Shown here: positions 16,639-51,618 of the stretch, one piece after another
How the letters are laid out: each line of letters begins with the position of its first letter
Numbering within the stretch: position 1 is the first letter of the stretch
Source: an uncultured Planctomycetales bacterium
GTDB taxonomy: Bacteria > Omnitrophota > Gorgyraeia > Zapsychrales > JANLHA01
Assembly: GCA_964374105.1 (NCBI GenBank)
Contig: CAYJXI010000008.1
Span: forward strand, 2,589-66,588
Reading direction: 5' to 3'
DNA: 64,000 nucleotides
Translations under genes and position numbers: made by a program
The notes under the pieces: generated by a model
What the model was told of the DNA's origin: nothing
The model's input: the letters and a program-made list of their open reading frames with translations, nothing else
The model's database searches: none

Positions 16639-16648
16639 ATATCTATTA

Positions 16649-16657: not shown

Positions 16658-16744
16658 TCTACGACTCAAACTTGCATGTCGCTGATTGTTTTTAAAGAGT
16701 CTTCAATTTAAAGAATAATTTATCTTTTAATTTACAATCTCCCT

Positions 16745-18765: not shown

Positions 18766-18773
18766 TTCATCAT

Positions 18774-18830
18774 GGGGACAGCGCCCTTTATCAAATAATT
18801 ATGTCTGGAATAAAAAAAGGGCGCTGTCCC
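18774..18830 (+). terminator. Perfect 15-bp stem hairpin (GGGACAGCGCCCTTT / AAAGGGCGCTGTCCC, 26-nt loop) between galT and gap
   Basis: Read directly. It shares a GGGGACAG 5' arm with the hairpins at 782 and 16585. Confidence 0.45.
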
Positions 18831-18844
18831 TTAAAATCAAATAG

Positions 18845-19903
<1,059 letters not shown>

Positions 19904-21954: not shown

Positions 21955-22899
21955 GTGAAGATTAACGGCAAGTTTTTACGGTTCATGGTTGCCCTCAGCA
22001 TAACCGTTGGTATTTTCGTCTTCCTGCTTTCAACGATAGATTTTTCCAGGGTCATGGCTGCCCTACAAGAAGCGAATATTTCTCTCATAATTTTTGTATT
22101 CTTTATTTTAATCTTTGGTAATTCCCTACTGGATGTCTGTAGATGGAAAGTTATATTGCATTATCTCCATTATCCTATTTCTTTTAAAGAAGCCTTGTTG
22201 ATCAAAGTAGCGGCTAATTTGTTGATCACGGTATTGCCGTTTAGGAGCGGAGAACTGTCCCGCCTTGTGTATCTCAAACGTTTGAAAAATATTCCTTATA
22301 CCAAAACCACACTTTCCATTGCGGTGGAATACGGTCATAAAATTTTCATCCTGCTGCTTTATCTGTGCATAGGCATGGGCTTGTACTATTTTGAAAATCA
22401 TAAGCAAAATACGGGTTATGATTTTAACCGTTTTTCCTTAACTTTGATGCCCTTATGTTTTATTAAGCTCGACATCTATAGGGTGATCATGGCAAAATGG
22501 GGGGAGAAATACCTCTCTGTCTTCCAGCTTCATTTTAACGAGTTAAAGGATCTTCTTAAGAATAAAAAGATATTTTTTTTTAATTTTTTGTACACCAGTA
22601 CGGATTTTATCAATTTCTATTTGCTATCCAAATCGTTGTCGATGGACATCCCTGTTTCTGCAATATTGTTTTTTCTCCCTCTCATTTTATTTATCAGCTG
22701 TCTGCCGTTCACTATAGCAGGACTGGGGTCGAGGGAGTTATCTATCCTATTTTTCTTTCAGAAATACGCCTCTTCTGAGGTGCTGTTGTCATTAGGCATA
22801 TTGTATTCTTTGGTGGAGTTTGTATTACCTTTTTTGGTAGGGGTATTGGTTATGGCCTTTTTCTTTAGACAAAATCCTAAATTTGAGTGTTGGCCGTGA
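21955..22899 (+). CDS. Integral membrane protein resembling the lysyl-PG-synthase-TM / flippase-like family commonly paired with GT2 enzymes
   Basis: 8 or more TM segments, GTG start with an AGAGGA RBS. Family assignment is by pattern only. Confidence 0.4.
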   Translation: MKINGKFLRFMVALSITVGIFVFLLSTIDFSRVMAALQEANISLIIFVFFILIFGNSLLDVCRWKVILHYLHYPISFKEALLIKVAANLLITVLPFRSGELSRLVYLKRLKNIPYTKTTLSIAVEYGHKIFILLLYLCIGMGLYYFENHKQNTGYDFNRFSLTLMPLCFIKLDIYRVIMAKWGEKYLSVFQLHFNELKDLLKNKKIFFFNFLYTSTDFINFYLLSKSLSMDIPVSAILFFLPLILFISCLPFTIAGLGSRELSILFFFQKYASSEVLLSLGILYSLVEFVLPFLVGVLVMAFFFRQNPKFECWP

Positions 22900-24536
22900 A
22901 TCAAATCCAGAGACATCGTATGAATGACGGTAGGCATCGAAATCAAAAAATTGTCATCGCAATTATCGTTTTGGCGGGCAGCTTATTTTTCTTGTTTTTT
23001 AACCTTGGGCACTATGCGCTCTGGGATGATGAAGCTACAACAGCCCTTTATGCCCAATCCGTCTGGCGTACCGGGGATACCTACGCCTTGTTAGATCATC
23101 ATTTGATTGCTTATGATTCGGGGATTGACTTAAAAGGTCTTTACAGCCGATATATGCCCCCGTTGCCATTTTATCTAGCCGCTGTGTTTGTCGCCAACTT
23201 TCCTGGATCAGCTTTTGCGGCACGGTTACCTTTTGCCATTTGCGGATTGTTAGCGGTAGGGATGATGCTTTTATGGTTATGGCGATCCGGGGCTTCTCTT
23301 AAGACATGGGGCCTTACCGCGATAGGCATTCTTTGTAACGTTTCGCTCATGTTATTTAGCCGGCAATGCCGTTATTACTCGATATCCATCCTCATGGCAA
23401 TACTTTTAGCCTTTCTCTATTTTTACCGAGATGAGCGAATAAAGACCTCAGCAGCAATAACGGTGACCTCACTTTTACTTTTTTCCTCCAATTATTTGAG
23501 CTATGCCGCTGTTTATGCCTGTCTGATCGTTGATTATCTTTTCTGGGGTCGAAAAACCCGCCCTATTCCCTATCCTCAACTTGCCATAATTTTTGTTCCC
23601 CAATTTCTGATCGGTGGATTGATTTTTAATATATTCAACCCCCTGGGCAAGGACCTGTGGGAGCATTATACGTACGCACAGTTTTGGAGGGGAAAGGCCG
23701 CATTATTACTGGAAAGCTTTTACAGTCTTAATGCGTGTGAGTTAGGTGTGGGAATACTTATTCTCCTAGCGCCGATCCTGTATTTGTTCACGAGAGACAA
23801 TCTCTTGCGTTGTTTTGTGGCTAGCGGCATTTATTTACTTGTGGTTGGATTGCTTTCTCCGCCCTTAAGTAAAATAGGGACAACGGTCAGATACCTTGCC
23901 CCGTTGATTCCTCTGTGCATTTTGACGACGGCCTTAAGCATACAGGCATTAACCATTCGTCTGAAGTGGTTATCCATTCCGCTGGCGGTGTTTGCCTTCG
24001 GGACAAATGTATTGCACGGCGGACCATGGGGCCTCACTGATAACAAAACGAAGTTTAGCCGAGTTCTGGCTCAAGATCGATTCAGGTCTACGGTTATAGA
24101 ATTTACGAAGGAATTGATTTCGCCGCCTCCGAGCGCTTATCGGGTGACGTCCGCATGGATTAATCAAAATTTAACAGAGGGGGACACTCTTTGGGTCATG
24201 CCTTCTTATGCCGCGTATCCTCTTATGTACCATGCACCGAAGCCGACCTATGCCTGGCAATTGAAGGGAGTCTCAGAGTCGTTTAAGGGTTTATCGGCGA
24301 TTCATTTTATGTATCAAATCCCGCCCGATTATGTTATTGCTTTCGGCCCTTATGTCGGTATTGTTCAGGATGAACTGGTGGCATTAGAAAAAAGGGGAGT
24401 CCATTATGTTCAAATCCAACAGATCGACCAATATTGGTATGATTTGACAAGACCGGAATTGTTTTGGCATTCATTCCGTAAAATAGAGAATTATTCATCA
24501 ACGTCAGAGGCAGTTTACATCTTTAAACGCATTTAA
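22887..24536 (+). CDS. GT-C fold glycosyltransferase, ArnT/PMT_2-like (uses polyprenyl-phosphate-sugar donors)
   Basis: First-loop motif ALWDDEATTALYAQSVWRTGD and ARLPFAICGLLAV match the ArnT/PMT_2 DE...RLP pattern. Multi-TM. An alternative ATG lies at 22920. Confidence 0.6.
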   Translation: MLAVNQIQRHRMNDGRHRNQKIVIAIIVLAGSLFFLFFNLGHYALWDDEATTALYAQSVWRTGDTYALLDHHLIAYDSGIDLKGLYSRYMPPLPFYLAAVFVANFPGSAFAARLPFAICGLLAVGMMLLWLWRSGASLKTWGLTAIGILCNVSLMLFSRQCRYYSISILMAILLAFLYFYRDERIKTSAAITVTSLLLFSSNYLSYAAVYACLIVDYLFWGRKTRPIPYPQLAIIFVPQFLIGGLIFNIFNPLGKDLWEHYTYAQFWRGKAALLLESFYSLNACELGVGILILLAPILYLFTRDNLLRCFVASGIYLLVVGLLSPPLSKIGTTVRYLAPLIPLCILTTALSIQALTIRLKWLSIPLAVFAFGTNVLHGGPWGLTDNKTKFSRVLAQDRFRSTVIEFTKELISPPPSAYRVTSAWINQNLTEGDTLWVMPSYAAYPLMYHAPKPTYAWQLKGVSESFKGLSAIHFMYQIPPDYVIAFGPYVGIVQDELVALEKRGVHYVQIQQIDQYWYDLTRPELFWHSFRKIENYSSTSEAVYIFKRI

Positions 24537-24546: not shown

Positions 24547-26199
24547 ATGAAATTGAGCTTATTCGATTTTGAATTACCCCTAAATAAAAGGAATTTGTTA
24601 TTCATAACAATCGGCAGTTGGCTTTGTTTAGGCATCCTGATATGGATGATTCAGAAGATTTCCATTAATGGCCCGGATCTATTTAACGAGACCGAAACAT
24701 ATCTTTTTAGTCACTATCTTCAAGAAATTGGTATTTATTTATTGGCTAGTTTTATTATCTTTATACTGCCCGGGTTGATATGGATTAACGTTTTTTTCAA
24801 CAGGAAATATACGACCTTAGAATTATTAGCGGTTTCTTTCATCGCCAGTTTAACCGGGTTAATCGTTATGACTACCATGTTTAAGATGGCTACCTCTAAA
24901 GAGTTGCAATTCTTGAATTTTCTTTCTATGCTCCTGACATTGACTTTTACAGGACTAATGATGTGCCTCAAAAAGGATATTCTTATAAATACGATCAAAA
25001 TTTCTTTAGCGCATATCCTTTTATGTTTCCTTTTGATATTCCTCATTGTTATGGTAGGGTGGGTTTTTCAAGAAGAAATATTACGAGTTGATTATGATAG
25101 AAATTTCTCACCGGAACGAATTTTAGACATACCGTTAGGAATGCAGGATGACGTCTTAGAAAGTTTTGGTTTAATGAATAGTCTCAAGACTTATTTACTG
25201 CCGTATTGGGATCTAGAATATGCGGATCGTTTCGGCTACTCTATTATTGATCCGCCTTTAAGGATTTTTATTTCTCTATTTTTAATGCTTTTTTTGGGTG
25301 AGTCTTTTGCGGTCCAGAGTTTGAATACTTTATTAGTGCTGCTGTTGAGTTTTTGGCTAGTTGTCCATTTATCAACTTTAGAAATGAAAAGAACAAATCG
25401 TTTCTTTTTTGTTCTTGTGATTCCCTTTTTGTTTCTGGACTATCTTTTTGTTTTTTTAGAGCATCACGAATCTTCCCTGGTTTTGATTGACCATATCCAT
25501 TTTATGAGTCTATTCGTTATGGCCCAATTTTATTTTCTATTAATGGGGAAACACAATCTGTTTCTTATCTTTGCTTTGTTAGCGTTTTTAACTAAATTTG
25601 AAGCAGTTTTGTTCACTCTTCTGGGCCTTTGGTTTTATCAAAAAATATGCAAACCTCAGCCTCAAACCATCTCTGATCTCTTCAGGAAATATTTAATGCT
25701 TATTTCGCCTTATATTTTGCTGATGATCATGATCGGTATGCTTCGAAGAGATTTGGGCGCCTATCTAGAAGCTTTCTTTTTGGAAAGATTTGTACGGATG
25801 GATCATTTTCATCTTTTCGATAAGGTCTTCCCGCATGAATCAACGGCGCCCTGGGGTTCTTTTTCTGTGAAAGCAACATGGGAATTCTTTAAGCAATTCA
25901 TGCTGGGTTCAAGTTTTCTGGGTATTGTCATATTCTTTCCTCAAAAGGACAAAATCTCCTGTTTTTTTAACCGAATGACTATCTTTTATTTTATTTTAGT
26001 TATGATCAGCCGGGAAAAGAGGGTACATTATATTTCACCGTTAGTCTTAATGTCTTCCATAGTCGCTTTACGGATGTTGTTTTTAACTAAATGGAAAGAG
26101 CATTTTCTTCCTTACGTATATCGTTTAGCAGAGAGGATGGGAGCATTTCCTCAAAAACTAAAAAAAATGATACACGAAGAAAAGAATATGAGAGAATAG
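24547..26199 (+). CDS. Polytopic membrane protein, unknown function (very AT/Phe/Leu-rich)
   Basis: More than 12 predicted TM helices; no motif recognised. Confidence 0.45.
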   Translation: MKLSLFDFELPLNKRNLLFITIGSWLCLGILIWMIQKISINGPDLFNETETYLFSHYLQEIGIYLLASFIIFILPGLIWINVFFNRKYTTLELLAVSFIASLTGLIVMTTMFKMATSKELQFLNFLSMLLTLTFTGLMMCLKKDILINTIKISLAHILLCFLLIFLIVMVGWVFQEEILRVDYDRNFSPERILDIPLGMQDDVLESFGLMNSLKTYLLPYWDLEYADRFGYSIIDPPLRIFISLFLMLFLGESFAVQSLNTLLVLLLSFWLVVHLSTLEMKRTNRFFFVLVIPFLFLDYLFVFLEHHESSLVLIDHIHFMSLFVMAQFYFLLMGKHNLFLIFALLAFLTKFEAVLFTLLGLWFYQKICKPQPQTISDLFRKYLMLISPYILLMIMIGMLRRDLGAYLEAFFLERFVRMDHFHLFDKVFPHESTAPWGSFSVKATWEFFKQFMLGSSFLGIVIFFPQKDKISCFFNRMTIFYFILVMISREKRVHYISPLVLMSSIVALRMLFLTKWKEHFLPYVYRLAERMGAFPQKLKKMIHEEKNMRE

Positions 26200-26312: not shown

Positions 26313-28067
26313 ATGAAGTTAGCTTTAATTTACCCCCCATTTTTTCATAAGAAGTTTAATGAAAACCTCCCGACGGTTGATGATGAATTCGGCTTATTCC
26401 CTCACATCGGTTTTGGTTGGGTAGCGGCTGCTACTAAACAGGCCGGCCATGAGCTCAAGCTATTTGATGCCGCGGTGTCCAAATGCCGGTACGAAACCGT
26501 TTTGAAAGAGGTCCGGGATTACAGTCCCGATATATTAGGTTTTGCCGCTCATGCGATCCAGACGTATCGCGACATGCTGGTATGGGCCAAGAAATTCAAA
26601 AAGGATACCGGCCTGCCTATTTTGGTCGGCGGGTATGAGGCAAAAATTTATCCTTTAGAGATTATGGAACATTCATGCTTTGACTATTTGTGTGCCGGTG
26701 AAGCGGTGACGTTCATGGGGCCTTTCTTAGAAGCATTTAAGAGAGGATATGATTATGATAAAGTTCCGGACCTTTTTTATCGTAAGAATTGGCAAGTGAG
26801 AAGAACCCAAGATGCCCCGCATATTCCCTTCAGTCAGCATCCTCATCCTGATCGGTCCATTTTCCCTAATGAGCTTTATTACTCCCATGTGTCTTCTCGA
26901 AGGAATTTTACCATTGGCATGTCCGAAGTCGGCTGTCCCTACCCATGTACGTTTTGTTCGATGAGGCACACGGGCTTTGATGCCAGGACCCCAAAGCAGG
27001 TAGCCGATGAAATGCAGGAATGTGTTGAGCGTTACAACATCCATGAAATCGATTGGTTTGATCCCATCATGCTGTATGACCGAAATCGGATGATGAATTT
27101 AGCCGAGGAATTAAAGCGCCGCAAACTGGATATGATTTGGTCCACCAGAACGCGAGTCGATTGTCTTTCTTTCAGACGTCCTGATGGCAATGTTGATGAG
27201 GAGCTTATTCAAGCCCTTACCGAGTCTGGCTGTAAACGTCTTTTTTTCGGCATAGAGTCGGGAGATGACGAGGTTTTAAAAAATATCAGAAAGGCCAGCC
27301 GGACTGACAATATGCGCAAGGTATTGGAAGCCGTCGCAGCTCATGGCATTCGCCCTTTAGGTTTTTTTATGATCGGCAATCCCGGAGAAACCAAGGAGTC
27401 GGTTTATAAAACCATCACCTACGCTAAATCCCTGCCGTTGGATTATGCGCAATTTACCATTACCATCATGAAGCCCCACTCTGAATTGGAGAAAGATAAC
27501 TTTAAGGCTTTAGAAACAATCAACTATTGGCGTGAATACATTCGCGGAACCGTGGAAGAGCGCGTTCTGCCTACTCCCTGGACTAACCTCACTCGCGCTG
27601 AAATAGAGGTCTTGACGCGAATGGCGTATCTGCATTTCTACGCCAGACCCCGATACATTTTAAGAATGATCAGACGGTTACAATCCAGGGAAGAATTGAT
27701 GCGTTATGTGCGGGTATTTTTTCAGCTTTTATTGCGGCCGGTACGGCCTCAACAAGGGAAGAAAATACCTTTCATCGTTAAGGTCATAAGGTGCGTGTTG
27801 GCATTCTTGGAAGGGCTTATTGCTGTTATTAACAAGGGTGCCAGACATCCTGTTGCGGCCTATGGAGGAGGAGTGCGAGGGGCCTGGCAGTTGGCGAAAC
27901 GTGAATGGAAACGGTCAACAACCCTCGAAGATTTACCGGCTCCTGGTAATATGGACGAAGATCTTCTAATGATAGGTTCTGATAAACAATCTGACCAACG
28001 GGAGCAATTTGACCAACCCACCCGCTATATCCCTGTTTCCTCTGGTTCCCTAGGTTCTAGGCGCTAA
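26313..28067 (+). CDS. B12-binding (class B) radical SAM protein with a low-complexity C-terminal tail
   Basis: MKLALIYPPFF...GFGWVAAATKQAGHELKLFD B12-domain pattern and CPYPCTFC motif. Confidence 0.75.
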   Translation: MKLALIYPPFFHKKFNENLPTVDDEFGLFPHIGFGWVAAATKQAGHELKLFDAAVSKCRYETVLKEVRDYSPDILGFAAHAIQTYRDMLVWAKKFKKDTGLPILVGGYEAKIYPLEIMEHSCFDYLCAGEAVTFMGPFLEAFKRGYDYDKVPDLFYRKNWQVRRTQDAPHIPFSQHPHPDRSIFPNELYYSHVSSRRNFTIGMSEVGCPYPCTFCSMRHTGFDARTPKQVADEMQECVERYNIHEIDWFDPIMLYDRNRMMNLAEELKRRKLDMIWSTRTRVDCLSFRRPDGNVDEELIQALTESGCKRLFFGIESGDDEVLKNIRKASRTDNMRKVLEAVAAHGIRPLGFFMIGNPGETKESVYKTITYAKSLPLDYAQFTITIMKPHSELEKDNFKALETINYWREYIRGTVEERVLPTPWTNLTRAEIEVLTRMAYLHFYARPRYILRMIRRLQSREELMRYVRVFFQLLLRPVRPQQGKKIPFIVKVIRCVLAFLEGLIAVINKGARHPVAAYGGGVRGAWQLAKREWKRSTTLEDLPAPGNMDEDLLMIGSDKQSDQREQFDQPTRYIPVSSGSLGSRR

Positions 28068-28087: not shown

Positions 28088-29080
28088 ATGAATTTAACGA
28101 GAAAAATAAAAATAGCCCAGAAAGTTCTCTCTGCTAAAATTTCTAAGAAATATTGTCCTCTGACAGTTAGTTGGGCTATTACAAGGCGTTGCCGCCAGAG
28201 GTGTTCCTATTGTGGGGTTGTGGTCCCCAAAGAAGAATTATCCACAGAAGAAATTTTTACGATCATTGACAAATTGAGTCGTTTTGGAACGGAAAGGATT
28301 TCGTTTACCGGTGGAGAGCCGTTATTAAGGGAAGATTTAGGGCGTATTATCGATTACGCTAAAGGTAAAGATATTGTTTCCGTTGTTAATACGAATGGAG
28401 ATTTGTTAAAGCAGGCAATACAAAAGTTATCGAATGTCGAGAGAATTACGATGAGTTTTGACGGACCGGATGAGGTCCACAGGGAATTGAGGCGCGGCAA
28501 TTCCCATCATCTTGAGGCGATAAAATTATGCCGGTCAGAAGGTATTCCGATCGTCTTAACCACTGTCTTATCCAAACTCAATCTTGATTATATAGATTAC
28601 ATTTTGGATATAGCAGAGAAGTTCAATATCAAGGTGTTATTTCAGCCAGCCCAGCTTAATTTGTTGGGTCAAGACAAGACAAATCCATTAGCTTTAGAAA
28701 AACAACAGTTGCAAGACCAGATTGAAAGATTAATCAAGAAGAAATCACAAGGGAATAGTCATATCTATAACTCACTATCCGGATTGAGACATCTAAAGCA
28801 TTGGCCTGAGGCCGCGATAATCCCCTGCTGGGCGGCTAAATTGCATTGTCGAATCGATAGCGATGGTTATATATACCCTTGCGGGCACACAACAGCCGCT
28901 TATAAAGAGCGATCAATCTTTTACAAGGATTTAAATGATTATAATGAACTTTATGATTTGGTACCTGTTGGTTGCCGTCACTGTTGGTGTGCATCGATCG
29001 TTGAATACAATTTAGCCCTTTCTTTCCATATGGATTCTCTTTGGAATATTGCTAATAATGAAAATCATTTTTTCAATTAA
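28088..29080 (+). CDS. Radical SAM protein with C-terminal SPASM/twitch-like Cys cluster
   Basis: CRQRCSYC CxxxCxxC, FTGGEPLLR, and C-terminal CWAAKLHC...PCGH...GCRHCWC. Confidence 0.7.
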   Translation: MNLTRKIKIAQKVLSAKISKKYCPLTVSWAITRRCRQRCSYCGVVVPKEELSTEEIFTIIDKLSRFGTERISFTGGEPLLREDLGRIIDYAKGKDIVSVVNTNGDLLKQAIQKLSNVERITMSFDGPDEVHRELRRGNSHHLEAIKLCRSEGIPIVLTTVLSKLNLDYIDYILDIAEKFNIKVLFQPAQLNLLGQDKTNPLALEKQQLQDQIERLIKKKSQGNSHIYNSLSGLRHLKHWPEAAIIPCWAAKLHCRIDSDGYIYPCGHTTAAYKERSIFYKDLNDYNELYDLVPVGCRHCWCASIVEYNLALSFHMDSLWNIANNENHFFN

Positions 29081-29130
29081 TGAATGAAATTTTTGGGTAT
29101 GTCAATTGCGGTTTTTAAGGGAAGGCGTTT

Positions 29131-30369
29131 TTAGAAATATCGCGTGATTTTATTTAATGTTTCAACGAGAAGTTTCGCCTCATCTTTTGTATTATAGAGA
29201 TATAAAGACACCCTCAAACTCGGAGGCAATTTATATTTTTTATACCAGGCATGACAACAGTGAACCCCGCTTCGTGTCATAATATTGTAAGTCTCATCGA
29301 GAATAATCGACAATTCTCCGGAATCCATGCCATCAATGGTTAAGTTTATTATACCAGCTCTTAATTTCGCATCTTGTGGCCCGAGCAGTTTAATTCTGGG
29401 AAGACCTTTGATTTCACTGCTAATGAACTCATTGAGTTCAGTTGAATGTTGCAGGATGTTTTGCATTCCAATGTTTTTTAAGTACTGGATGGCCGCCGTT
29501 ACCCCCAATGCCCCGGAATAATTCTGTAAACCAGCCTCGAATCGATCAGGTATTTTGGAAAGAATAAACGAACGATAGTCTACATCGTCAACAGTTTCCC
29601 CACCTATAAGAAAAGGAGTCATTTCTTCAAGGAGATGTTTTTTAGCATAGAGACACCCCATGCCGGAGGGTCCCAGCATTTTATGAAATGAAAAAACAAG
29701 GAAATCAACATCGAGTTTCTGAACATCTAGCGATTGATGCGCAATGCTTTGTGCAGCATCAAGGAGGACCAAAGCCCCGTGTTCATGGGAGCAGTTGATG
29801 ATTTCTTCAATAGGGAGAGTGTATCCCGTAACGTGGGATGTGTGAAAAACACTGACGAGCCTCACTCCCGAACTCAATGCTGTTTTAAATTTTTGCATGT
29901 CAAAAGTAAAATCCGGTGAAAGTGTAAATGTTTTGTACTGCACTCCTATTCTTCTGGTTAATATTTGCCATGGCAAATTGTTGGAATTGTGTTCCATATC
30001 GGTGGTGAGAATGCAATCGCCGTTCTTAAAGGGAAAACTATGAGCAACAATATTAATGGAATCTGTTGCGTTTTTTGTGAAAACGATCTCCTGGGCATCC
30101 TTGGCGTGGATAAATTGACGTACCATCTCTTTTGCCTTGAGGTAAGCATCGGTTGTCAGCTTGCCGAATTTATGTATGGCCCGTTTGTGGCAACTGGGAT
30201 GCGCCGTATAATATCTGTTCATTGCTTCGATGACCTGCTGCGGTCTTAAAGTCACACAGGCATTATCAAAATATATCGGTCTTTTCCCATTGATCGATTG
30301 ATATAAGGATGGGAAATCGTTTCTTATTTGTTCGATACTCACAGGCATTAGTTCGATACTAATAGGCAT
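29131..30369 (-). CDS. Class V aminotransferase, cysteine desulfurase (SufS/CsdA-like)
   Basis: FSFHKMLGPSGMGCLYAKK (PLP-Lys motif of NifS/SufS) and RSGVHCCHAW (catalytic Cys loop). The start is taken as the ATG at 30369 (MPISIELMPVSIEQIRNDFPSL, the usual family N-terminus) rather than the ORF-track start at 30525, which would overlap the neighbouring small ORF. Confidence 0.7.
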   Translation of the reverse strand: MPISIELMPVSIEQIRNDFPSLYQSINGKRPIYFDNACVTLRPQQVIEAMNRYYTAHPSCHKRAIHKFGKLTTDAYLKAKEMVRQFIHAKDAQEIVFTKNATDSINIVAHSFPFKNGDCILTTDMEHNSNNLPWQILTRRIGVQYKTFTLSPDFTFDMQKFKTALSSGVRLVSVFHTSHVTGYTLPIEEIINCSHEHGALVLLDAAQSIAHQSLDVQKLDVDFLVFSFHKMLGPSGMGCLYAKKHLLEEMTPFLIGGETVDDVDYRSFILSKIPDRFEAGLQNYSGALGVTAAIQYLKNIGMQNILQHSTELNEFISSEIKGLPRIKLLGPQDAKLRAGIINLTIDGMDSGELSIILDETYNIMTRSGVHCCHAWYKKYKLPPSLRVSLYLYNTKDEAKLLVETLNKITRYF

Positions 30370-30376
30370 GTGAAGT

Positions 30377-30742
30377 TTAAGATAGCAACAAACAGATTGG
30401 AAGTAGAAAGACTGCCCACAAAAAGAGTAAGAATAAGAAATTAAAATTTTTGTAAGCGACCCCGGAAATTCTTGCGAAATACGGCAACAGGTAGCCGGCG
30501 ACCTTGCACCGAATTTTAGGAACAATCGGCGTCATGTGGATCAGACGCAAATTGATCCGAACAATTAACTTAATGAGTTCACAGATTTTTTTTAGCGGCT
30601 TGATTATTTTGCTTAAGGGGATCAAGATAAAAAGAAACAGACTGCCTATGATGATCATAGGCATGGAGAGTGTTATCAGTCCAACCAAATTGGGTTCATT
30701 TTCTTTGAAATGGTAACCACAACAACCGGTCTCAAAAGACAT
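30377..30742 (-). CDS. Small (121 aa) two-TM membrane protein of unknown function, fitting exactly between the PP-loop and desulfurase genes
   Basis: The ORF fills the gap with 4-nt and 8-nt spacers to its neighbours. It has hydrophobic helices and an N-terminal CCGYHF. Confidence 0.4.
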   Translation of the reverse strand: MSFETGCCGYHFKENEPNLVGLITLSMPMIIIGSLFLFILIPLSKIIKPLKKICELIKLIVRINLRLIHMTPIVPKIRCKVAGYLLPYFARISGVAYKNFNFLFLLFLWAVFLLPICLLLS

Positions 30743-30746
30743 CTCT

Positions 30747-31595
30747 TTACCTTTCGATCAGTTTATAAAAACGGCTATGCTTTCTTTTTTGCACATAATC
30801 CTCTAAAGTATTTGTCAGATGAGATATTTTATCTTTGTAAAGTTTAACATTGGCCTTAACATATTCCTCATAAGAGTGATCGTATAAATAATACCACTTA
30901 ATAAATATATTAAACAGAATAAACTGAAAACAACGAGGCTGCATTCTACGGTCTAATTCAGTTCCTTTAACATTTTCAGACGGCATCAGGCCAAGTTCAT
31001 GCAATTGACAACCCGTCGTCCTCGCTTTTGTTTTCATGCTTGGTTTTTGAGGATCCTTTTCCTTTAAGATTGATTCTAAATGAAAACGATCAGCAAAGCC
31101 GATATTCTTGGGCGGGTCATAGTTGAAGACAGGGTTGTTATAGTTAATACCAAATTTGGCATACAATTTTTTTAGTTCATCAATGACGGTTGATATTTGT
31201 TCTGGGAATAAATACATGCCTTGGTTAGCCCCATCGGACACATTGCCGATATTATGATCCAAACAGAATATCAAAGTTCGGATATGCATGGCCAGTTTGC
31301 ATAATCCGCAAATAGAGAGTAAGAAAAAGCCGTGATGTCGCAAGTTATAAAGGTAACGTTCATAAAAAACATATTCGGTGAGTTTATCTATTATGACAAT
31401 GTGGGAGATAAACTTATCTTCACCGAATTTATCTTTCAATTTTTGGACGTTGAGTTGGCTGTTATTGACAGAAAATAATCCGAAACGCTTATATGTGAGA
31501 AGATGGACTTTGTCAAACTTTTTGGCTTCCAATGCCGCGGCTAAGGTTGAGTCCGTGCCTCCCGAAAACATCACAACTGTTTCATTATTGTTCAT
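30747..31595 (-). CDS. PP-loop ATP pyrophosphatase (adenine-nucleotide alpha-hydrolase superfamily), TtcA/TtuA/LarE-like candidate sulfurtransferase
   Basis: N-terminal VVMFSGGTDST PP-loop. A CGLCK motif about 80 residues downstream plus a further Cys, as in Fe-S dependent thiolases. Confidence 0.5.
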   Translation of the reverse strand: MNNNETVVMFSGGTDSTLAAALEAKKFDKVHLLTYKRFGLFSVNNSQLNVQKLKDKFGEDKFISHIVIIDKLTEYVFYERYLYNLRHHGFFLLSICGLCKLAMHIRTLIFCLDHNIGNVSDGANQGMYLFPEQISTVIDELKKLYAKFGINYNNPVFNYDPPKNIGFADRFHLESILKEKDPQKPSMKTKARTTGCQLHELGLMPSENVKGTELDRRMQPRCFQFILFNIFIKWYYLYDHSYEEYVKANVKLYKDKISHLTNTLEDYVQKRKHSRFYKLIER

Positions 31596-31599
31596 GATA

Positions 31600-31785
31600 T
31601 TAATTTTCTAGTTGTGTTTTTTGTGCCTTTTGAAGTTCATTAATAATGAATTTTAGAAGGACAATATAGCTCAAATAGAAAAATTGCGTGATCCAGCCTA
31701 ACAGCTCAATATAAAGACATCGCAAGCGCCAGGGCAATATAAGACCGAGGCTCAAGAGGAAGAAGGCCATTATTTTTTTAAACAT
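31600..31785 (-). CDS. Small hydrophobic ORF (61 aa), possible membrane peptide, translationally coupled to the PP-loop gene
   Basis: Stop lies 4 nt before the downstream start. Support is weak. Confidence 0.25.
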   Translation of the reverse strand: MFKKIMAFFLLSLGLILPWRLRCLYIELLGWITQFFYLSYIVLLKFIINELQKAQKTQLEN

Positions 31786-31851
31786 AATTTGTCACTTGTT
31801 GAAAATATGCTTTTGTTTAACAGTTTTTTGAACCGAAATGGTTAGGAGATT

Positions 31852-33333
31852 TCAGGATGTTTTTCCTAGGCTTAAGTTCTTTCCATTCCCATCCCTCTGT
31901 AAATTTTGTATCAAATAAGCTTGTAACATCAATCCTGCAGCATTCAAAATATTCTTCAGATAATTGAATTTACTGGGATATTTCCAAAATCCTCTCATCA
32001 TTCTTTTGGGGTTTAAATAAAATTTGCTTTGGGCCTTAAAGATTATTTTATTAAGTTCACCAGAAGAGACTTTGGCCATAGAACGTTTCACGGAATAGTA
32101 GCTTATGTCTTGAAAATCCAAATTTAACGCCCCACCTTTTTTATCCCCGTTTAATTTGTTTTGGTAAATATCAAGAATGTCATTGTATTCTGTAGCTTTA
32201 AAAAAGGAGGCAATATCTAGATCAGAGTCAACGGCGAAATCAATGGTTTGGTTCATTTCTTCCTCGGTCTCTGTGGCAAAGCCCAGCATAAAATAGCCTC
32301 CTGTCAGGATGCCTGTCTTTGCCGTTTTGCGAATGACTTCCCTGACAAGGGGGAGGTTAAGATTTTTCTTGATCAACTTTTGGATGCGCGGGGATCCGGA
32401 TTCAACGCCATAGACCAATTTGTAAGTTCCCGCCTCCTTTAACAAGCGTATCAAATCATCGGTCATGATGTCCGCACGGATACCGTGTGGAAAGGCAAGA
32501 CTGATTTTGATATCGGAATCTATGATGGCCTGACAGATATCTTTTGCGCGTTGATTATGATAATTAAAGACTGCATCAAAGATATGAATTTCTTTAGCCT
32601 TATATTTATCCTGCAGGAACTTGATTTCCGCTATGACATTTTGCGGTGATCGAGCCCGGAATTGTTTGTCATATGTCTCCAGACAAAATGTGCATGGGAA
32701 AGGGCAGCCTCGGGAGGTCAGAAGGGGAAGATAAAAACTTTCTTTGAGGGCCCCGTTCCAATTTGCGTATCGGGCGTATGCTTTAACATCGATCAAATCC
32801 CAGCTTGACGATGAAATAGAGATATCATCCAAATCGTTGGGTAAAATACGTTCTTTCGTTGTTATCATTGTTTCATCAATTTTATAGATAAGGCCATTGA
32901 CCTTAGAGCAATCTAATTGATTTTCTAATGAGGATAAAAGTTCTTTAACGGTTAATTCCGGCTCTCCTATAATGACAAAATCAATATTCGTATCCGTTGC
33001 CAAATATGTTTTGGCTAAAGTGGCCAGCTGCCCAAAGACAATAACTTTTGTATCTTCGTTATAATCTTTTGCTAGGGAAGCAATTGTGTGCACAGGCTCC
33101 GCCTCCCAAGCCATGGCATACAGTAATATAAATTTCGGATTTAACGATTCAATTTCCTGCTTAATATCCAATTCCGAGAGGTTCCCGATTCCCATATCGG
33201 TAATTTTAAGGGAATAGTAATCCCCAAATTCCTTTTCAATTTGGGATGCGACATAAAGCAGTTCCAGCGGGGGAATCGGTCCACCGATGCCAACAGGTAT
33301 ATATGTTCTAACTAATAAAATGTTGTTATCCAT
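31852..33333 (-). CDS. B12-binding (class B) radical SAM protein
   Basis: SRGCPFPCTFC motif and N-terminal B12-domain pattern. Confidence 0.75.
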   Translation of the reverse strand: MDNNILLVRTYIPVGIGGPIPPLELLYVASQIEKEFGDYYSLKITDMGIGNLSELDIKQEIESLNPKFILLYAMAWEAEPVHTIASLAKDYNEDTKVIVFGQLATLAKTYLATDTNIDFVIIGEPELTVKELLSSLENQLDCSKVNGLIYKIDETMITTKERILPNDLDDISISSSSWDLIDVKAYARYANWNGALKESFYLPLLTSRGCPFPCTFCLETYDKQFRARSPQNVIAEIKFLQDKYKAKEIHIFDAVFNYHNQRAKDICQAIIDSDIKISLAFPHGIRADIMTDDLIRLLKEAGTYKLVYGVESGSPRIQKLIKKNLNLPLVREVIRKTAKTGILTGGYFMLGFATETEEEMNQTIDFAVDSDLDIASFFKATEYNDILDIYQNKLNGDKKGGALNLDFQDISYYSVKRSMAKVSSGELNKIIFKAQSKFYLNPKRMMRGFWKYPSKFNYLKNILNAAGLMLQAYLIQNLQRDGNGKNLSLGKTS

Positions 33334-33349
33334 CGTTATTCATGCTCAA

Positions 33350-33574
33350 TTAAAATAAAGCATAAATGGCCGGCAGAATCGACTGACTGCCGCTTAAATT
33401 AACAAACAAACTCAAGAAAGCAAGTAGGATGAGTAAGGGAAGGAGCCACCATTTTTTGCTCTGCATAATAAGAATGAATAGATAAGTCAATACTTCCCAA
33501 TTGCTCTTGATCCGACTTTTTTTGGACTTAGTCGGATTTTTATTTTTTTGAGCATCCGCTTCATCCGCTTTCAT
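33350..33574 (-). CDS. DUF5989-like small membrane protein
   Basis: KKWWLLPLLILLAFLSLF...PAIYALF matches the remembered DUF5989 signature (KKWWL.P..., C-terminal ...IYTLF). Confidence 0.5.
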   Translation of the reverse strand: MKADEADAQKNKNPTKSKKSRIKSNWEVLTYLFILIMQSKKWWLLPLLILLAFLSLFVNLSGSQSILPAIYALF

Positions 33575-35235
33575 AGGTTAACGGCCCTTTCTTTAACTAG
33601 GACTTTATAAATGTCATCTGCCATAATACGATGGCCCTCTTTAGTGCAATGGTCGAAGTCTGAGAAGAATTTATCTTTTTCTTGCGGAGGGAATTTATTA
33701 AATACCGCATAATTATCAACAAAGGACACGCCATTTTTATTGGCAACATTCTCTAAAACTTTATTGGCTGAGTGATAGGCATAAGGGTAGTTCTGGATGA
33801 TTAAATTGATATTATTCATTCTGCACAACTGCACTATTCTTTCTAAATCATTTTCTAGCCAGGCATCAATTTCTTTTTCCATTTGTACTCTATTTTTAAA
33901 AAAGAAAACATAATTTCGAAACTCCTCGTTTTCTCTAAGGGTTGGATTTTCTTTTTCCAGCTTGGAAAAGAATGCCATAATATCATCGGCATCATACTGG
34001 CTTTGAAATTCATAGGCTTTGAGCAGGGCATAATAATTATCGAACTCGCCTGGATACAAACCGATAACATTTATGAACATCCCGACAGCTTCATCAAATT
34101 GACCTAATTGCATATAAATCCAGGCTAATTCGGTATAGGTATACGGTTTTGGATTCAATTCCAGTGACTTTTTGTACCATGTGGCTGCCTCCTTGTATCG
34201 GCCGAGTTTCTCATTGTAGCTGGCCATAGCATCATAAATAAGGTCTTGAGCCGTATTGAATTCGAGTGCCTTTTTGAATAATTTTTCCGCCTCTTCAAAT
34301 CTCTCCCGCATGATATAGGATTTGGCTAATCTTACATAAGCCCAGATACGATAAGGCTGATCGGTAATTAATTTGTGATATAAGTCTTCCGCATCATTGT
34401 ATCTTCCTTGTTTTTGGTAGTTTTCTCCTAAAGCCATATATGCATTTTCAGTTCCTATGTTATTGGTGATCATCTTGTTATACAATGATTCCGCCTCTTC
34501 ATATTTACCCTGTTCGTTATAACATTCTGCCAGTTGATAATATGTTTCAATCCTGTCGGGGTTTGAAATTATTTCTTTTTGATATTTTTCTTCTAAATTT
34601 TTATCACAAAAATCCACCTTCCCTGTGAAATCTCCCGTTTTATTGTAAGCATAATCATATTTTGCTTTAAGCCGTTCTTTGGCGCTCTTTTGGGCTTGTT
34701 TTTGGAGTATTCTTCCCTTTAAATTGACCATAAGAATGCTAGCAACTTTAAATAAGCGTAAATGAGAGAGGATATTCCCTCCCTTATTTTGATGATAACC
34801 GGCTGGGTTGAATCGGTTAGCCGATCCCACCAGAAGTATAACCGTATCTACACTGTAAGTCTTAATCAGTTTAGATAAATAGGAGAGGGCTTGTGTGGAA
34901 TTGGCCTCACAAATGCCACCGTTAATAACGGTGTATTCTTGTGGATAATTTTTTGAAAACAATTTCTGTAATTGACTGGGATAATTTTCCTCCCATTTCC
35001 CGCTTCCTCCCACCGTATAGGAGTCTCCTAAAGTTAAGATTGTGTTTGGGGTGTTATCGGTTAATTTATTTTGACCTTCGGAAAGCAATTGATGTAAATA
35101 AACATATCCCCCGAGCCTCAACCCGCCTTCTAACAATATGAGAAAAAAGAAGAGGCTAGCCAAACTGATACACAAGCGTGTTTTTAAATTGAGTTTATTC
35201 ATCTTCCAATTTGGATTTTGCCAATTGTATTCCAT
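33571..35235 (-). CDS. Membrane-anchored SGNH/GDSL-family hydrolase with an internal TPR-repeat insertion
   Basis: SGNH block I LGDSYTVGG, block II NGG, block III GSAN, block V DFDH. 5-6 TPR units (YYQLAECYNEQGKYEEAESLY...) lie between blocks III and V. Confidence 0.6.
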   Translation of the reverse strand: MEYNWQNPNWKMNKLNLKTRLCISLASLFFFLILLEGGLRLGGYVYLHQLLSEGQNKLTDNTPNTILTLGDSYTVGGSGKWEENYPSQLQKLFSKNYPQEYTVINGGICEANSTQALSYLSKLIKTYSVDTVILLVGSANRFNPAGYHQNKGGNILSHLRLFKVASILMVNLKGRILQKQAQKSAKERLKAKYDYAYNKTGDFTGKVDFCDKNLEEKYQKEIISNPDRIETYYQLAECYNEQGKYEEAESLYNKMITNNIGTENAYMALGENYQKQGRYNDAEDLYHKLITDQPYRIWAYVRLAKSYIMRERFEEAEKLFKKALEFNTAQDLIYDAMASYNEKLGRYKEAATWYKKSLELNPKPYTYTELAWIYMQLGQFDEAVGMFINVIGLYPGEFDNYYALLKAYEFQSQYDADDIMAFFSKLEKENPTLRENEEFRNYVFFFKNRVQMEKEIDAWLENDLERIVQLCRMNNINLIIQNYPYAYHSANKVLENVANKNGVSFVDNYAVFNKFPPQEKDKFFSDFDHCTKEGHRIMADDIYKVLVKERAVNL

Positions 35236-36511
35236 CGATAAGGCCGTTGCCGATAAGGGCCTTATATATCTCTTGGCTGATAATGGTATGCCCTAAGGGG
35301 TTGGGATGTATAGTATCATGCTGAGAGTCTAAGAAAAGCGATTTATTATTCTCTTTTGCATATTGATTAAAAGCAGAAACCATATCAACCATTACTACTT
35401 GTTCTTCTTTGGCAACCCTTTCCATAATTTCGTTGTAATCTTTACCAAGATATCCGCACTCATAGAGTTCCATCTTTATGGCTTGCTTAAAATTATCATG
35501 GGCCTGTTTACCGTCACCGATCTGCTCATAGTATTTTCCTAACAAATAATATGCTTTACTTGAAAAGGGATCCAGAACGATCGCATCTTTAAGTTTTTCG
35601 ATGGCTTTCCCAAATTTTTTTTCTTTGGCCAGGGCAAGGGCATCGGCCAGATAGCTGTCTAGTTTTGAATGCGAAGACTCAGAGACATTTTTTTTAGAGG
35701 GCAAATTGACTGGCATTTTAAGAAAAACGACTTTAATCCCATTTTGTCTTGCTATATGAATAATCGATTTTAGGTTCTCTTTGTAATCGTCGATGGGGAC
35801 TCTTCTTGTCTCTATGTATTGATATTTACCAATCGTACCAAAATATTGTACGGCTGCCGACTGGAATTGAGTCACGGTTTTTCTTAAAAGATTGACCAGA
35901 TGGCTTCTATCCAATAAGTTTTCGATATTTGTTAATATTTTGCTTTTTGATTTCAATTCTTTATCAGTTTTTCCATCACTTCTAAAAAAACGATGTTTAT
36001 CCACATCATTAATGACATAGGGGACGGTGATAATATCTGGAGAAAGTCTTAGGATTTTATTCTTAAGAAACTGCAACCCTTGATGGGAACTGTACCCTAT
36101 GACACCGGCATTAATGACTTCGACATCTTTTGACTGGGGAGCATTTTTCTTAAGGAGTTGATCCAATTGATAGGCATAGGTCTGTTCTTCTTTGACTCCC
36201 CAGCCAAATGTCGGTGATGCGCCAAGACAAACGATCCTCGTTGTATTTTCATTCGTTTTGCGTGGGATTGCTTTGTTACGCAATCCAAGGCTGTTTGTTC
36301 TGACCCTGGCTCCTTCAAAGACGGTATTTAAATCTGCCCTTTGTTTCCATAGGAGGTCTGCGTCCTGTTCTAGCATAGCCAATATACGTTCGAGTCGATT
36401 GGGGGGAGGGGAGAATAACCTTGCTAATCCCTCTATTGACAGCAATAGAAAACAGAGAAAAGTCAGGGCTGCTATTTGTCCACAATATTCTTTTACTTTT
36501 ACGTTCGCCAT
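35195..36511 (-). CDS. Paralogous membrane-anchored SGNH-like hydrolase with TPR insertion (block I GASPT, Asp replaced by Ala)
   Basis: IVCLGASPTFGWG, NAGVIGYSS, YVINDVD and DTIHPNPLGH, with about 2 TPRs between them. Confidence 0.55.
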   Translation of the reverse strand: MANVKVKEYCGQIAALTFLCFLLLSIEGLARLFSPPPNRLERILAMLEQDADLLWKQRADLNTVFEGARVRTNSLGLRNKAIPRKTNENTTRIVCLGASPTFGWGVKEEQTYAYQLDQLLKKNAPQSKDVEVINAGVIGYSSHQGLQFLKNKILRLSPDIITVPYVINDVDKHRFFRSDGKTDKELKSKSKILTNIENLLDRSHLVNLLRKTVTQFQSAAVQYFGTIGKYQYIETRRVPIDDYKENLKSIIHIARQNGIKVVFLKMPVNLPSKKNVSESSHSKLDSYLADALALAKEKKFGKAIEKLKDAIVLDPFSSKAYYLLGKYYEQIGDGKQAHDNFKQAIKMELYECGYLGKDYNEIMERVAKEEQVVMVDMVSAFNQYAKENNKSLFLDSQHDTIHPNPLGHTIISQEIYKALIGNGLIDGIQLAKSKLEDE

Positions 36512-36518
36512 GTCTTTA

Positions 36519-37709
36519 TCACAATGACCGGTATTTCTGATTCCGTAAGATTGATTCGCTTTTGATCTGGCCTTCTTGAGAAGTCAGGATTTTATAAAGC
36601 GCGACAATGACCCCTGTTCTGACATCTACGCTGGTATCGTAGAGTCCTTTTTCAAGATAAGGGAGAGCCACTTTGTCTTTTCTTTCCCCCAAAGCCCAAG
36701 CGGCTATTTCTCTGACCGTGCTGTTCTCGTCGTTAAGCAGCACCTCTCCCAAAATCGATACCAGGGGGAACTCCTTAAAGTTGTTCAAATCTTCAATGGC
36801 GCTCTCTCTGATCTCCCAATTTTTTTCTTTTAAAAAATTCAGTAAAAAGGGATAAACGTACTCGAGCTCGTCTAAATGGCACAAGGCTTTAGCGGCCTCG
36901 GATTTGAGTTCTATCTCATTGCCATTAGCTACAACATTTTTTAAATATAAAAGGCTGTCCTTATCCTCATTTTTAGCAAGTAGGCAGGCAAGCCAGACTT
37001 TAACATAGGGGTCCATCTCGTTTTTCATAACCTGTTTGAGGGTTAAATTATCTAAGGCGATATTGAAAATGTGCAATAGATTTACTAAATGATACCTGGC
37101 TTCGGGGTTAGCATCTTTTAACAAGGAGTCGTTAATAAATTCCAGCTTTTTTTTATCGCCTAATTTTGCCATAGCAGCGGCGATTGTGATTTTATTGAGC
37201 TTATCTTTCTCCTGAAAAAATGCGTTTCCCAGTTCCGGGGTTGTTGATTCATCTCCCAGTTCACCACAACCAAAAGCGGCTTTTCTTCTGATCAAGGTGT
37301 CTTCATCGTTTAATAGCTTAAGCAGGTAAGGAACAGAGGATTTATTTTGAGTGAGTAGCATCCCTTCAACGGCTCCGAGTCTTACCACAGGTGTTTTTTC
37401 CTCAATAATGACCTTCCAGAGCTTCTTTAGAATCACGGGATCACCCAATTCCCCCATGGCTTCAGCGATATTGAATCTGGGCATCACGTCATGATGATTC
37501 AGTTGCATCAATAGAATTTTTCTAAGAAGGTCTGGCTGATGCGTTTTGTATTGATTAAGCAAATCGCGGTATTTAAAAACAGCCTCATCTTGATCATAAG
37601 TACGATTCTCAGCTGCGTGTATGGGACAAATTAACAAGAAAACAATGTTAAAAAATAGAAACGATAATAAAGAGATGGTTTTGCCTTTTTTGAAGTCAAG
37701 TGTTGTCAT
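36519..37709 (-). CDS. Secreted or periplasmic HEAT / PBS-lyase-repeat protein
   Basis: N-terminal signal-like hydrophobic segment, then about 9 repeats of the type VRLGAVEGM...IRRKAAFGCGELGD...VREIAAWALGE. Confidence 0.6.
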   Translation of the reverse strand: MTTLDFKKGKTISLLSFLFFNIVFLLICPIHAAENRTYDQDEAVFKYRDLLNQYKTHQPDLLRKILLMQLNHHDVMPRFNIAEAMGELGDPVILKKLWKVIIEEKTPVVRLGAVEGMLLTQNKSSVPYLLKLLNDEDTLIRRKAAFGCGELGDESTTPELGNAFFQEKDKLNKITIAAAMAKLGDKKKLEFINDSLLKDANPEARYHLVNLLHIFNIALDNLTLKQVMKNEMDPYVKVWLACLLAKNEDKDSLLYLKNVVANGNEIELKSEAAKALCHLDELEYVYPFLLNFLKEKNWEIRESAIEDLNNFKEFPLVSILGEVLLNDENSTVREIAAWALGERKDKVALPYLEKGLYDTSVDVRTGVIVALYKILTSQEGQIKSESILRNQKYRSL

Positions 37710-37828
37710 GTCAAACCTGAACTTAGATATTCAATAGAGGTCCCTTGCAGTAGAATTCGAGAAGAGGCGTGTCAGTACCAATGAGATAAATATTTTTTCA
37801 TTAACGAGGCCAGCGTGAAGTATTCCGA

Positions 37829-37856
37829 TTGACAGTATTTTAGTATAAGTTAAAAT
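37829..37856 (+). promoter_or_regulatory. Candidate promoter TTGACA-N16-TAAAAT upstream of the 38052 gene
   Basis: Consensus -35 hexamer read directly. The -10 matches 5 of 6. Confidence 0.3.
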
Positions 37857-37916
37857 AAGTCACAAGATAAAAATTAACCTACTGAATTAATATGTATAGA
37901 AATATTCATTATTAGA

Positions 37917-38035
37917 TTCCCCCGCCTTCACAGGCGGGGAACTTACTGTCTCAAGCGCTGTTGGCGCTAATCGTTGTCCAGAAATTTCATTTCTGGAATT
38001 TGCTCTCATCCCCGCCTTAAATAAAGGCGGGGAAT
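37917..38035 (+). repeat. Four consecutive hairpins in the leader/intergenic region, including two related GC-rich palindromes CCCCGCCTT-N4/5-AAGGCGGGG 91 bp apart
   Basis: Hairpins at 37917-37941, 37954-37968, 37978-37996 and 38008-38035, all read as perfect or near-perfect inverted repeats. Confidence 0.55.
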
Positions 38036-38051
38036 TCTCGCTGAGATTAAA

Positions 38052-51613: not shown

Positions 51614-51618
51614 GGCAT

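Follow-up and report, generated by a model that had tools for sequence, protein, structure and literature searches.

A group of four genes encoding a PP-loop ATP pyrophosphatase, a SufS-type cysteine desulfurase and two small membrane proteins, here designated s61 and mem121, lies on the minus strand of a 64,000-nucleotide stretch of DNA from an uncultured bacterium of the Omnitrophota (contig CAYJXI010000008.1, assembly GCA_964374105.1; the whole stretch is called the window). The PP-loop protein is homologous to YcfA, a proven thioamide synthase, and the system is regarded as a so far uncharacterised variant within the family of adenylating sulfur transferases, anchored in the membrane and tied to envelope glycan modification. 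Its most likely function is the insertion of sulfur into a sugar or lipid of the cell envelope. An earlier, sequence-only reading of this DNA had proposed a dedicated sulfur module of a SufS-like and a TtcA-like enzyme inside a glycan locus, served in addition by a methylthiotransferase (MTTase)-type radical S-adenosylmethionine (SAM) gene. This study partly supports that interpretation. The sulfur module is borne out by the conservation of the gene pair and of two small open reading frames (ORFs) across phyla, by the distinct subtype of the desulfurase and by the homology to YcfA, whereas the link to the MTTase-like gene is not. Membrane anchoring of the PP-loop enzyme was absent from that account and is added here.

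The PP-loop enzyme and its cysteine residues

The FSGGTDS PP-loop and the downstream CxxC noted earlier (C96-G-L-C99, that is, CGLC) are both present in the PP-loop protein. Only its first ~30 residues were matched by Pfam and NCBIfam models and the scores of QueC, DUF7411 and PRK14561 all fell under their cut-offs, which places the protein in no curated family. Neither of the other identities raised by the sequence-only reading, QueC and asparagine synthase, applies. The QueC models gave 20.6 bits (PF06508, cut-off 22) and 20.5 bits (TIGR00364, cut-off 150.3) over the 30-residue PP-loop only (residues 6-36), and the cysteines are placed elsewhere than the C-terminal four-cysteine zinc site of QueC. 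Models of LarE, asparagine synthetase B and NAD synthetase, with which there is weak fold similarity, found no match in Pfam or NCBIfam at E <= 0.01, nor did those of ATP_bind_3 and TtcA.

A profile search of the PDB sequences (hmmsearch) returned one strong match, to YcfA of Erwinia amylovora (E 1.7e-19, residues 6-164). With an AlphaFold2 model of the protein (pLDDT 83.5, pTM 0.85), YcfA chains formed the top 20 Foldseek matches (best E 6.5e-9, TM ~0.7 relative to target), followed at E 1e-5 to 1e-3 by carbapenam synthetase, QueC, MJ0690 and TtuA/NcsA; argininosuccinate synthase was also among the next-best folds. YcfA is the closest solved relative in both sequence and fold. Together with YcfC it synthesises the thioamide of 6-thioguanine in E. 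amylovora (PDB 9KQ6, 9KQ7, 9KQ9 and 9KQD): YcfA activates GTP by adenylation at the C6 carbonyl and attaches free L-cysteine, and YcfC, which has no catalytic cysteine, cleaves the adduct to yield the thioamide (PMC12494993). The two systems are alike in combining an adenylating enzyme with a class-V pyridoxal phosphate (PLP) enzyme of desulfurase fold, and the PP-loop and a DG...F-P-x-Q segment are common to both adenylating enzymes. YcfA differs in being soluble and in lacking the CxxC, having LG-EK where the PP-loop family has CGLCK, while YcfC is a C-S lyase and the desulfurase of the module keeps its cysteine. Further differences of the family are a C-terminal addition of ~60 helical residues, the small membrane subunits and the location in glycan loci.

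Relatives of the PP-loop protein are numerous. A search of 5.8 billion proteins yielded 291, the best 120 of which are mostly of ~280 residues (233-312), come largely from Omnitrophota and Elusimicrobiota metagenome-assembled genomes and are unnamed or mis-named as QueC. Profile search of 1.84 billion representatives recovered 638 representative clusters (50% identity), 123 of them at E <= 1e-30. Among 185,579 species, with one genome for each, at least 139 places encode a relative, and the neighbourhood counts given below refer to the best 80 of these, each taken with 10-kb flanks. These 80 loci belong to Omnitrophota, Elusimicrobiota, Bacteriovoracia (including Halobacteriovorax), Myxococcota and a few other groups. 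Sporadic distribution and genomic context show that this family is not a housekeeping enzyme.

Across alignments spanning 28-100% identity, S11-G-G-x-D15-S16, C96, C99 and C222 (in Q219-x-x-C222) are invariant; another cysteine, C111, is common to YcfA but is not invariant in the family. The earlier label of a TtcA-like enzyme stands as far as these three cysteines are concerned. TtcA, TtuA and Ncs6 likewise combine an SGGxDS PP-loop with three cysteines, the third of which lies ~90-125 residues downstream, and the C-x2-C-x22-G arrangement, followed by strand beta-4, has exactly the spacing of E. coli TtcA (C122-x2-C125-x22-G, ending at G148). This spacing was compared by hand, because profile alignment with TtcA reached the PP-loop only. 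Cys122, Cys125 and a third cysteine ~90 residues downstream are essential ligands of the [4Fe-4S] cluster of TtcA (PMC4081106). In CtaC, the iron-sulfur (Fe-S) thioamide synthetase of closthioamide with a non-RNA substrate, C154, C157 and C284 follow D77-S78 (PMC6772006), and this is nearly the spacing of D15-S16, C96, C99 and C222 when published positions, rather than a sequence alignment, are compared.

In other respects the TtcA-like label does not hold. The closest relative is YcfA, similarity to TtcA and TtuA is undetectable in profiles beyond the PP-loop, and the Foldseek matches are modest (E ~5e-4, TM ~0.35). Unlike TtcA, TtuA and Ncs6, the family has no zinc fingers, tRNA-binding features or TtuB-like carrier, and it is membrane-anchored and sporadic. 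CtaC shows that an Fe-S PP-loop enzyme can thioamidate a substrate other than RNA (PMC6772006), but it acts on carrier-protein-bound peptides in an antibiotic cluster independent of nonribosomal peptide synthetases, and no carrier protein is encoded at the window locus. The family thereby unites a YcfA-like scaffold with the cysteine triad of Fe-S-dependent thiolases, and by analogy the enzyme probably binds an Fe-S cluster. It was also observed that two fused members, P0267 (ATPGLSSLSWH) and P0294 (ATCGFSSLAWH), have lost the CxxC pair, so part of the superfamily may work without the triad.

The residues around the active site bear on whether the protein might instead thiolate a nucleotide or tRNA, either as a lineage-specific tRNA thiolase or as a YcfA-like maker of a thio-purine antimetabolite, the glycan neighbours being incidental. 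The well-studied PP-loop relatives other than CtaC and LarE all act on nucleobases, to our knowledge, and some database entries name members of the family QueC or 'tRNA methyltransferase subunit'. The phenylalanine that stacks on the guanine in YcfA (F132) and the aligning glutamine (Q135) are conserved as the invariant F130 and Q133 of F130-P-x-Q133. However, R18, Y128 and Q129, through which YcfA handles free L-cysteine and the GTP phosphates, are replaced by T14, G126 and an invariant M127. The PP-loop protein carries no THUMP, TRAM or zinc finger domain, the membrane anchor is conserved and sometimes fused to it, the partner is a true desulfurase rather than a YcfC-type lyase, and the distribution is sporadic. 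In addition, in at least four phyla the context is always one of envelope-glycan and SGNH genes and never of translation genes. Nucleotide or tRNA thiolation is therefore considered quite improbable.

The desulfurase and the small membrane proteins

The NifS/SufS-type PLP-lysine motif and the HCC loop previously pointed out in the 29131-30369 product were both located and aligned with SufS structures. The PLP lysine lies within FSFHKMLGPSGMG, the SFHK of which aligns with its SufS counterpart; the motif SFHKMLGPSGMG was also located in this protein, and the catalytic cysteine loop RSGVHCC aligns with RSGHHCA of SufS. The protein scores 376 bits with Aminotran_5 and 430.8 bits with the SufS model TIGR01979, slightly under the cut-off of 475.1, and is ~45% identical over its full length to plastid NFS2 and Synechocystis SufS (PDB 4Q75, E 2.5e-92; 1T3I, E 2.6e-91). 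It resembles SufS and CsdA in the PLP lysine, the catalytic cysteine loop and the full-length alignment, and is distinguished from them by its sub-cut-off score, its pairing with a membrane protein bearing a CCG motif and its own subtype signature, EHNSN / GVHC.HAWY, compared with EHHSN / HHCCQPLM in housekeeping enzymes. All complete module-linked copies retain the HK motif together with the first cysteine of GVHC, and the usual EHHSN and HHCCQPLM occur in those SufS genes of L072, L075 and L077 that lie on the opposite strand at a distance of more than 3.5 kb. Domain scans revealed no sufBCD, SufE or SufU gene in the 64-kb window. The retained cysteine and the subtype mark the protein as a true, dedicated desulfurase rather than a lyase of the YcfC kind, and this enzyme is the presumable sulfur donor of the module.

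The s61 protein is hydrophobic and has the motif LP(W/Y)R(L/A)R...LGW..Q. Its gene immediately precedes that of the PP-loop protein in 65 of the 80 loci by BLASTP and in 53 by motif. Extensions of 60-140 residues at the N-terminus were found in 19 of the 150 listed representatives of the PP-loop family; a hidden Markov model (HMM) of s61 matches those of P0294 (E 1.7e-15), P0267 (E 1.9e-11), P0303 and P0317, and the mem121 HMM matches that of P0279 (E 4.6e-6). Such fusions suggest an enzyme that acts at the membrane and has s61, and in some lineages also mem121, as a subunit. Thus s61 is the likely membrane-anchor subunit of the PP-loop enzyme, and mem121 is probably an accessory subunit tied to SufS. 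An invariant C-C-G stands at the N-terminus of mem121, which also has two transmembrane segments and a central loop of 50-65 residues, 6-12 of them Lys/Arg.

The third small protein, DUF5989, is rich in K/R at its N-terminus, has a single transmembrane segment and carries a near-invariant C-terminus, ..S(I/V)LPAIYALF. In the window and in loci L004-L083 the end of the LPAIYALF motif is also the end of the protein, with three exceptions. DUF5989 partners with both carbamoyltransferase/SxtJ-like genes and the PP-loop module. No match in NCBIfam or Pfam was obtained for s61, mem121 or the SxtJ-like protein, and none in NCBIfam for DUF5989; a literature search found no paper on DUF5989 or on a PP-loop/SufS module.

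Their strong motifs (CCG in mem121, LPAIYALF in DUF5989) and the tight coupling of these small ORFs to the enzyme would also suit a precursor peptide, thioamidated by the PP-loop enzyme to give a product resembling the ribosomally synthesised and post-translationally modified peptides (RiPPs). The N-terminal fusions of s61 and mem121 fit subunits and not substrates, and on this ground s61 was rejected as a RiPP precursor. All three small proteins are hydrophobic membrane proteins, DUF5989 is also found where the PP-loop gene is absent, for instance beside a carbamoyltransferase, and neither a protease nor an exporter typical of RiPPs is present, all of which makes a RiPP-like product hardly tenable.

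Genomic context of the module

Conservation of the PP-loop/SufS gene pair, accompanied by the same two small membrane ORFs, extends across Omnitrophota, Elusimicrobiota, Bacteriovoracia and Myxococcota. A SufS gene lies on the same strand within 3 kb (one to two genes downstream) in 27 of the 80 loci, and a mem121-like ORF with the CC motif lies directly downstream in 28 of the 75 loci that could be judged. Both were present in 23 loci, mem121 only in two, SufS only in one and neither in 40 (Fisher p = 2e-14, uncorrected for phylogeny); mem121 and SufS have been gained and lost together. The same arrangement in at least 23 independent loci of several phyla shows that the PP-loop/SufS pairing is not a matter of chance. 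The most frequent neighbours are SGNH/GDSL proteins (55/80) and DUF5989 (51/80), followed by B12-binding radical SAM enzymes (about 34-38 of 80), carbamoyltransferases (18/80), radical SAM enzymes of a different type (12/80) and GT9 glycosyltransferases (8/80). Where a B12-binding radical SAM ORF directly precedes the PP-loop gene, its best match among the 11 paralogues of the window is in every case (18/18) the 31852-33333 product.

The contexts of the PP-loop relatives, distant and archaeal members included, are always glycan, SGNH, DUF5989 or carbamoyltransferase genes and never translation genes. Two SGNH genes flank a distant member in L089, an Altiarchaeota member is near DUF5989, GT4 and Bac_transf genes (L090) and a fused form is inside a GT2/GT4 cluster (L091). 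In L088 (7001-9419), a distant relative of 248 residues is encoded by a gene that follows a small methyltransferase gene and shares 29 nucleotides with the beginning of a carbamoyltransferase gene, which hints at a carbamoyl group as the substrate in some lineages. Carbamoyltransferase as the general substrate-forming step was rejected for the window: although 18 of the 80 loci carry such a gene, no carbamoyltransferase or SxtJ-like gene was found in the window, and carbamoylation cannot therefore be the general step here.

In the window the four genes close a tightly packed operon of nine genes on the minus strand, 29131-37709 (Table 1). The HEAT gene and the SGNH gene after it are separated by 7 nucleotides, the two SGNH genes overlap, that at 33571-35235 overlaps the DUF5989 gene by 4 nucleotides and a further 16 nucleotides lead to the B12-binding radical SAM gene. 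Spacers of 4-8 nucleotides, previously reported for the radical SAM gene as well, hold for s61/PP-loop (4), PP-loop/mem121 (4) and mem121/SufS (7) but not for that gene, which is 66 nucleotides from s61 (81 with the start giving a 56-residue s61). Counts in a promoter and terminator scan of 28800-38300 were within chance (30 versus 28 +/- 5 and 13 versus 8 +/- 3), so the limits of the operon are drawn from gene spacing and strand only. The HEAT protein and both SGNH/TPR proteins each have an N-terminal anchor and are probably extracytoplasmic, and the 33571-35235 protein is probably an acyl-transferase or esterase acting on a glycan. The predicted products of the operon accordingly span the cytoplasm (the B12-binding radical SAM, PP-loop and SufS enzymes), the membrane (DUF5989, s61 and mem121) and the periplasm.

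Table 1. Genes of the operon, in order of transcription, and the MTTase-like gene of the same window
Feature	Positions	Strand	Characteristics
HEAT-repeat protein	36519-37709	-	First operon gene; N-terminal signal or anchor; same order on identical contig L001
SGNH/GDSL + TPR protein, second copy	35195-36511	-	Membrane-anchored; weakly matched by the SGNH esterase families LA_2490 and LA_2486
SGNH/GDSL + TPR protein	33571-35235	-	Membrane-anchored; N-terminal transmembrane segment visible
DUF5989 small membrane protein, 74 residues	33350-33574	-	Pfam assignment; one transmembrane segment
B12-binding radical SAM enzyme, 493 residues	31852-33333	-	Assigned by domains; nearest models BchE and HpnJ, far below cut-off
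s61, ORF of 56-61 residues	31600-31785	-	Hydrophobic; LPWRLR...LGW..Q motif
PP-loop ATP pyrophosphatase, 282 residues	30747-31595	-	SGGTDS; C96/C99/C222; F130-P-x-Q133
mem121, 121 residues	30377-30742	-	Two transmembrane segments; N-terminal C-C-G
SufS-type (class V, type II) cysteine desulfurase, 412 residues	29131-30369	-	PLP lysine and catalytic cysteine
TRAM-less MTTase-like radical SAM protein, 403 residues	46519-47730	-	UPF0004 and Radical_SAM domains; outside the module

The glycan-locus setting described earlier is confirmed by the genes around the operon. The window is a very large glycan region, with GT2 (six genes), GT4, GT9, monogalactosyldiacylglycerol (MGDG)-synthase-like, PMT_2, YdjC and DUF2079 genes, three DegT genes (sugar aminotransferases) and heptose-type kinase, nucleotidyltransferase and HAD genes. 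It contains eleven B12-binding radical SAM genes (837-2348, 26313-28067, 31852-33333, 41823-43259, 48777-50267, 50231-51613, 51619-53028, 53034-54380, 56017-57462, 59368-60831 and 62195-63493), four of which are consecutive (48777-54380). Two more radical SAM genes are located at 28088-29080 and 39948-41009 (SPASM domain), and all of these fall far under every NCBIfam equivalog cut-off. Their interleaving with glycosyltransferase genes suggests extensive radical (methyl) tailoring of sugars. Five ORFs of 500-640 residues (20109-21914, 22887-24536, 24547-26199, 38052-39962 and 43417-44955) have no Pfam or NCBIfam match, and several of them lie in stretches of strongly negative AT skew. The housekeeping genes priA, fmt and gap break up the glycan genes at 13722-19903, where a tandem GalT/HIT-like pair is also found (16745-18765).

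The MTTase-like gene at 46519-47730 was correctly recognised in the sequence-only reading, as all three N-domain cysteines (C18, C54 and C83) and the radical SAM motif (C184-ASN-C188-NF-C191; CASNCNFC) are present, with matches to UPF0004 (PF00919, 40.9 bits) and Radical_SAM (PF04055, 74.2 bits). These features are common to MiaB, RimO and MtaB. It is not a canonical RimO or MiaB: neither this protein nor its close homologues match TRAM (PF01938), TIGR00089 gives 187.6 against a cut-off of 251, and every equivalog score is under its cut-off. It belongs to a small TRAM-less clade of ~45 close relatives, the nearest 45% identical, compared with <=29% for canonical MiaB and MtaB, and members of this clade occur in clusters of radical SAM and glycosyltransferase genes. 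In L085 and L086 the MTTase-like gene is preceded by a gene for an unannotated 510-residue protein. The gene is real and non-canonical but not demonstrably part of the module, and its product may methylthiolate something other than RNA or protein.

The proposal that this gene belongs with the module did not hold, and a scheme in which PP-loop enzyme, SufS and MTTase-like protein cooperate on one product, by thiolation and then methylthiolation, is very unlikely. All three genes do share one large glycan region, and the non-canonical, TRAM-less character of the protein makes a non-RNA substrate plausible. The MTTase-like gene is nevertheless 15 kb from the module in a separate transcription unit, with a plus-strand gene (38052-39962) between them, and generic radical SAM matches aside, its type was not found in the 80 related loci. 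The cluster of its nearest relative combines radical SAM and glycosyltransferase genes without a PP-loop gene or SufS, and another relative lies among unrelated genes. Moreover, in MTTases such as MiaB and RimO the sulfur is donated by an auxiliary cluster of the enzyme itself, and a PP-loop partner is not required.

Proposed mechanism and implications

It is proposed that s61, the PP-loop enzyme, mem121 and SufS form a membrane-associated sulfur-insertion machine. The PP-loop enzyme would be held at the membrane by s61 and would use ATP to adenylate a carbonyl oxygen (of an amide, carbamoyl or carboxyl group) of a non-RNA substrate, with release of pyrophosphate. The activated oxygen would then be replaced, presumably by sulfur, which would be drawn from cysteine by the dedicated SufS-type desulfurase. 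This sulfur would probably be presented on a [4Fe-4S] cluster at C96/C99/C222, as in TtcA, TtuA and CtaC; a free-cysteine adduct route of the YcfA type appears less likely. The substrate would most likely be an intermediate, either membrane-bound or linked to a nucleotide, in the synthesis of the envelope glycan or glycolipid made by the surrounding locus, with the B12-binding radical SAM enzyme and the extracytoplasmic SGNH/TPR proteins acting before or after the sulfur step. For this mechanism in its entirety the chances are judged to be about even.

Several observations weigh against sulfur insertion by this machine. In ~60% of the loci (40 of the 66 judged) no SufS is encoded beside the PP-loop enzyme, and where SufS is present a radical SAM gene, of B12 type or other, nearly always follows it, so that SufS might serve Fe-S cluster supply instead. 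An hhalign comparison of the family alignment with TtcA covered 22 PP-loop columns at 15% probability, and zinc could be an alternative ligand of the three cysteines. By the positive-inside rule the loop of mem121 would be cytoplasmic and its CCG tail would be on the outer face, away from the cytoplasmic SufS, which makes a role of mem121 as a relay of the SufS persulfide doubtful. Given this charge distribution, mem121 can be regarded only as a candidate for a SufE-like persulfide acceptor.

Some of these points would suit an adenylating amidotransferase or ligase that adds nitrogen (uronic acid to uronamide, or carbamoyl/ureido to guanidino) in the manner of argininosuccinate synthetase, QueC or beta-lactam synthetase, with structural zinc in the PP-loop enzyme and with SufS and mem121 feeding Fe-S clusters to the radical SAM enzymes. 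The folds next to YcfA, namely carbapenam synthetase, QueC and argininosuccinate synthase, agree with this explanation, as do the loci without SufS, the radical SAM genes after SufS and the adjacent or overlapping carbamoyltransferase genes of some relatives. The best homologue, however, inserts sulfur, and the triad occupies the Fe-S ligand positions of sulfur-transferring relatives, unlike the zinc site of QueC. Furthermore, the presence of SufS follows that of mem121, which is encoded beside the PP-loop enzyme, rather than how many radical SAM genes there are, and no glutaminase domain or partner is present. Nitrogen transfer is thus regarded as unlikely.

Carbonyl-adenylating enzymes that exchange oxygen for sulfur are known to us for tRNA, for cofactors (LarE) and from two pathways to antibiotics or antimetabolites (YcfA and CtaC), and we know of none that is membrane-bound or takes part in envelope glycan biosynthesis. 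What is new in the proposed sulfur-insertion module is the anchoring through dedicated small subunits, the private branch of SufS and CCG protein and the fact that envelope-glycan, SGNH and DUF5989 genes constantly accompany it. A more specific proposal, which can be put forward only tentatively, is that this enzyme is the first representative of a widespread family of membrane-anchored Fe-S PP-loop thiolases, through which an intermediate of an envelope glycan or glycolipid would acquire a thiocarbonyl or thiol group (thioacetamido, thiocarbamate or thiocarboxylate), SufS and the CCG protein being the dedicated sulfur-supply branch. If this is true, Omnitrophota, Elusimicrobiota, Bacteriovoracia and some Myxococcota and archaea would bear sulfur-substituted surface glycoconjugates, a modification so far undescribed; the carriers include predatory and episymbiotic bacteria with poorly known surfaces. 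It would in addition offer a first way into the functions of DUF5989 and of the SGNH proteins akin to LA_2486 and LA_2490, and would show the coupling of cytoplasmic sulfur mobilisation to a membrane process.

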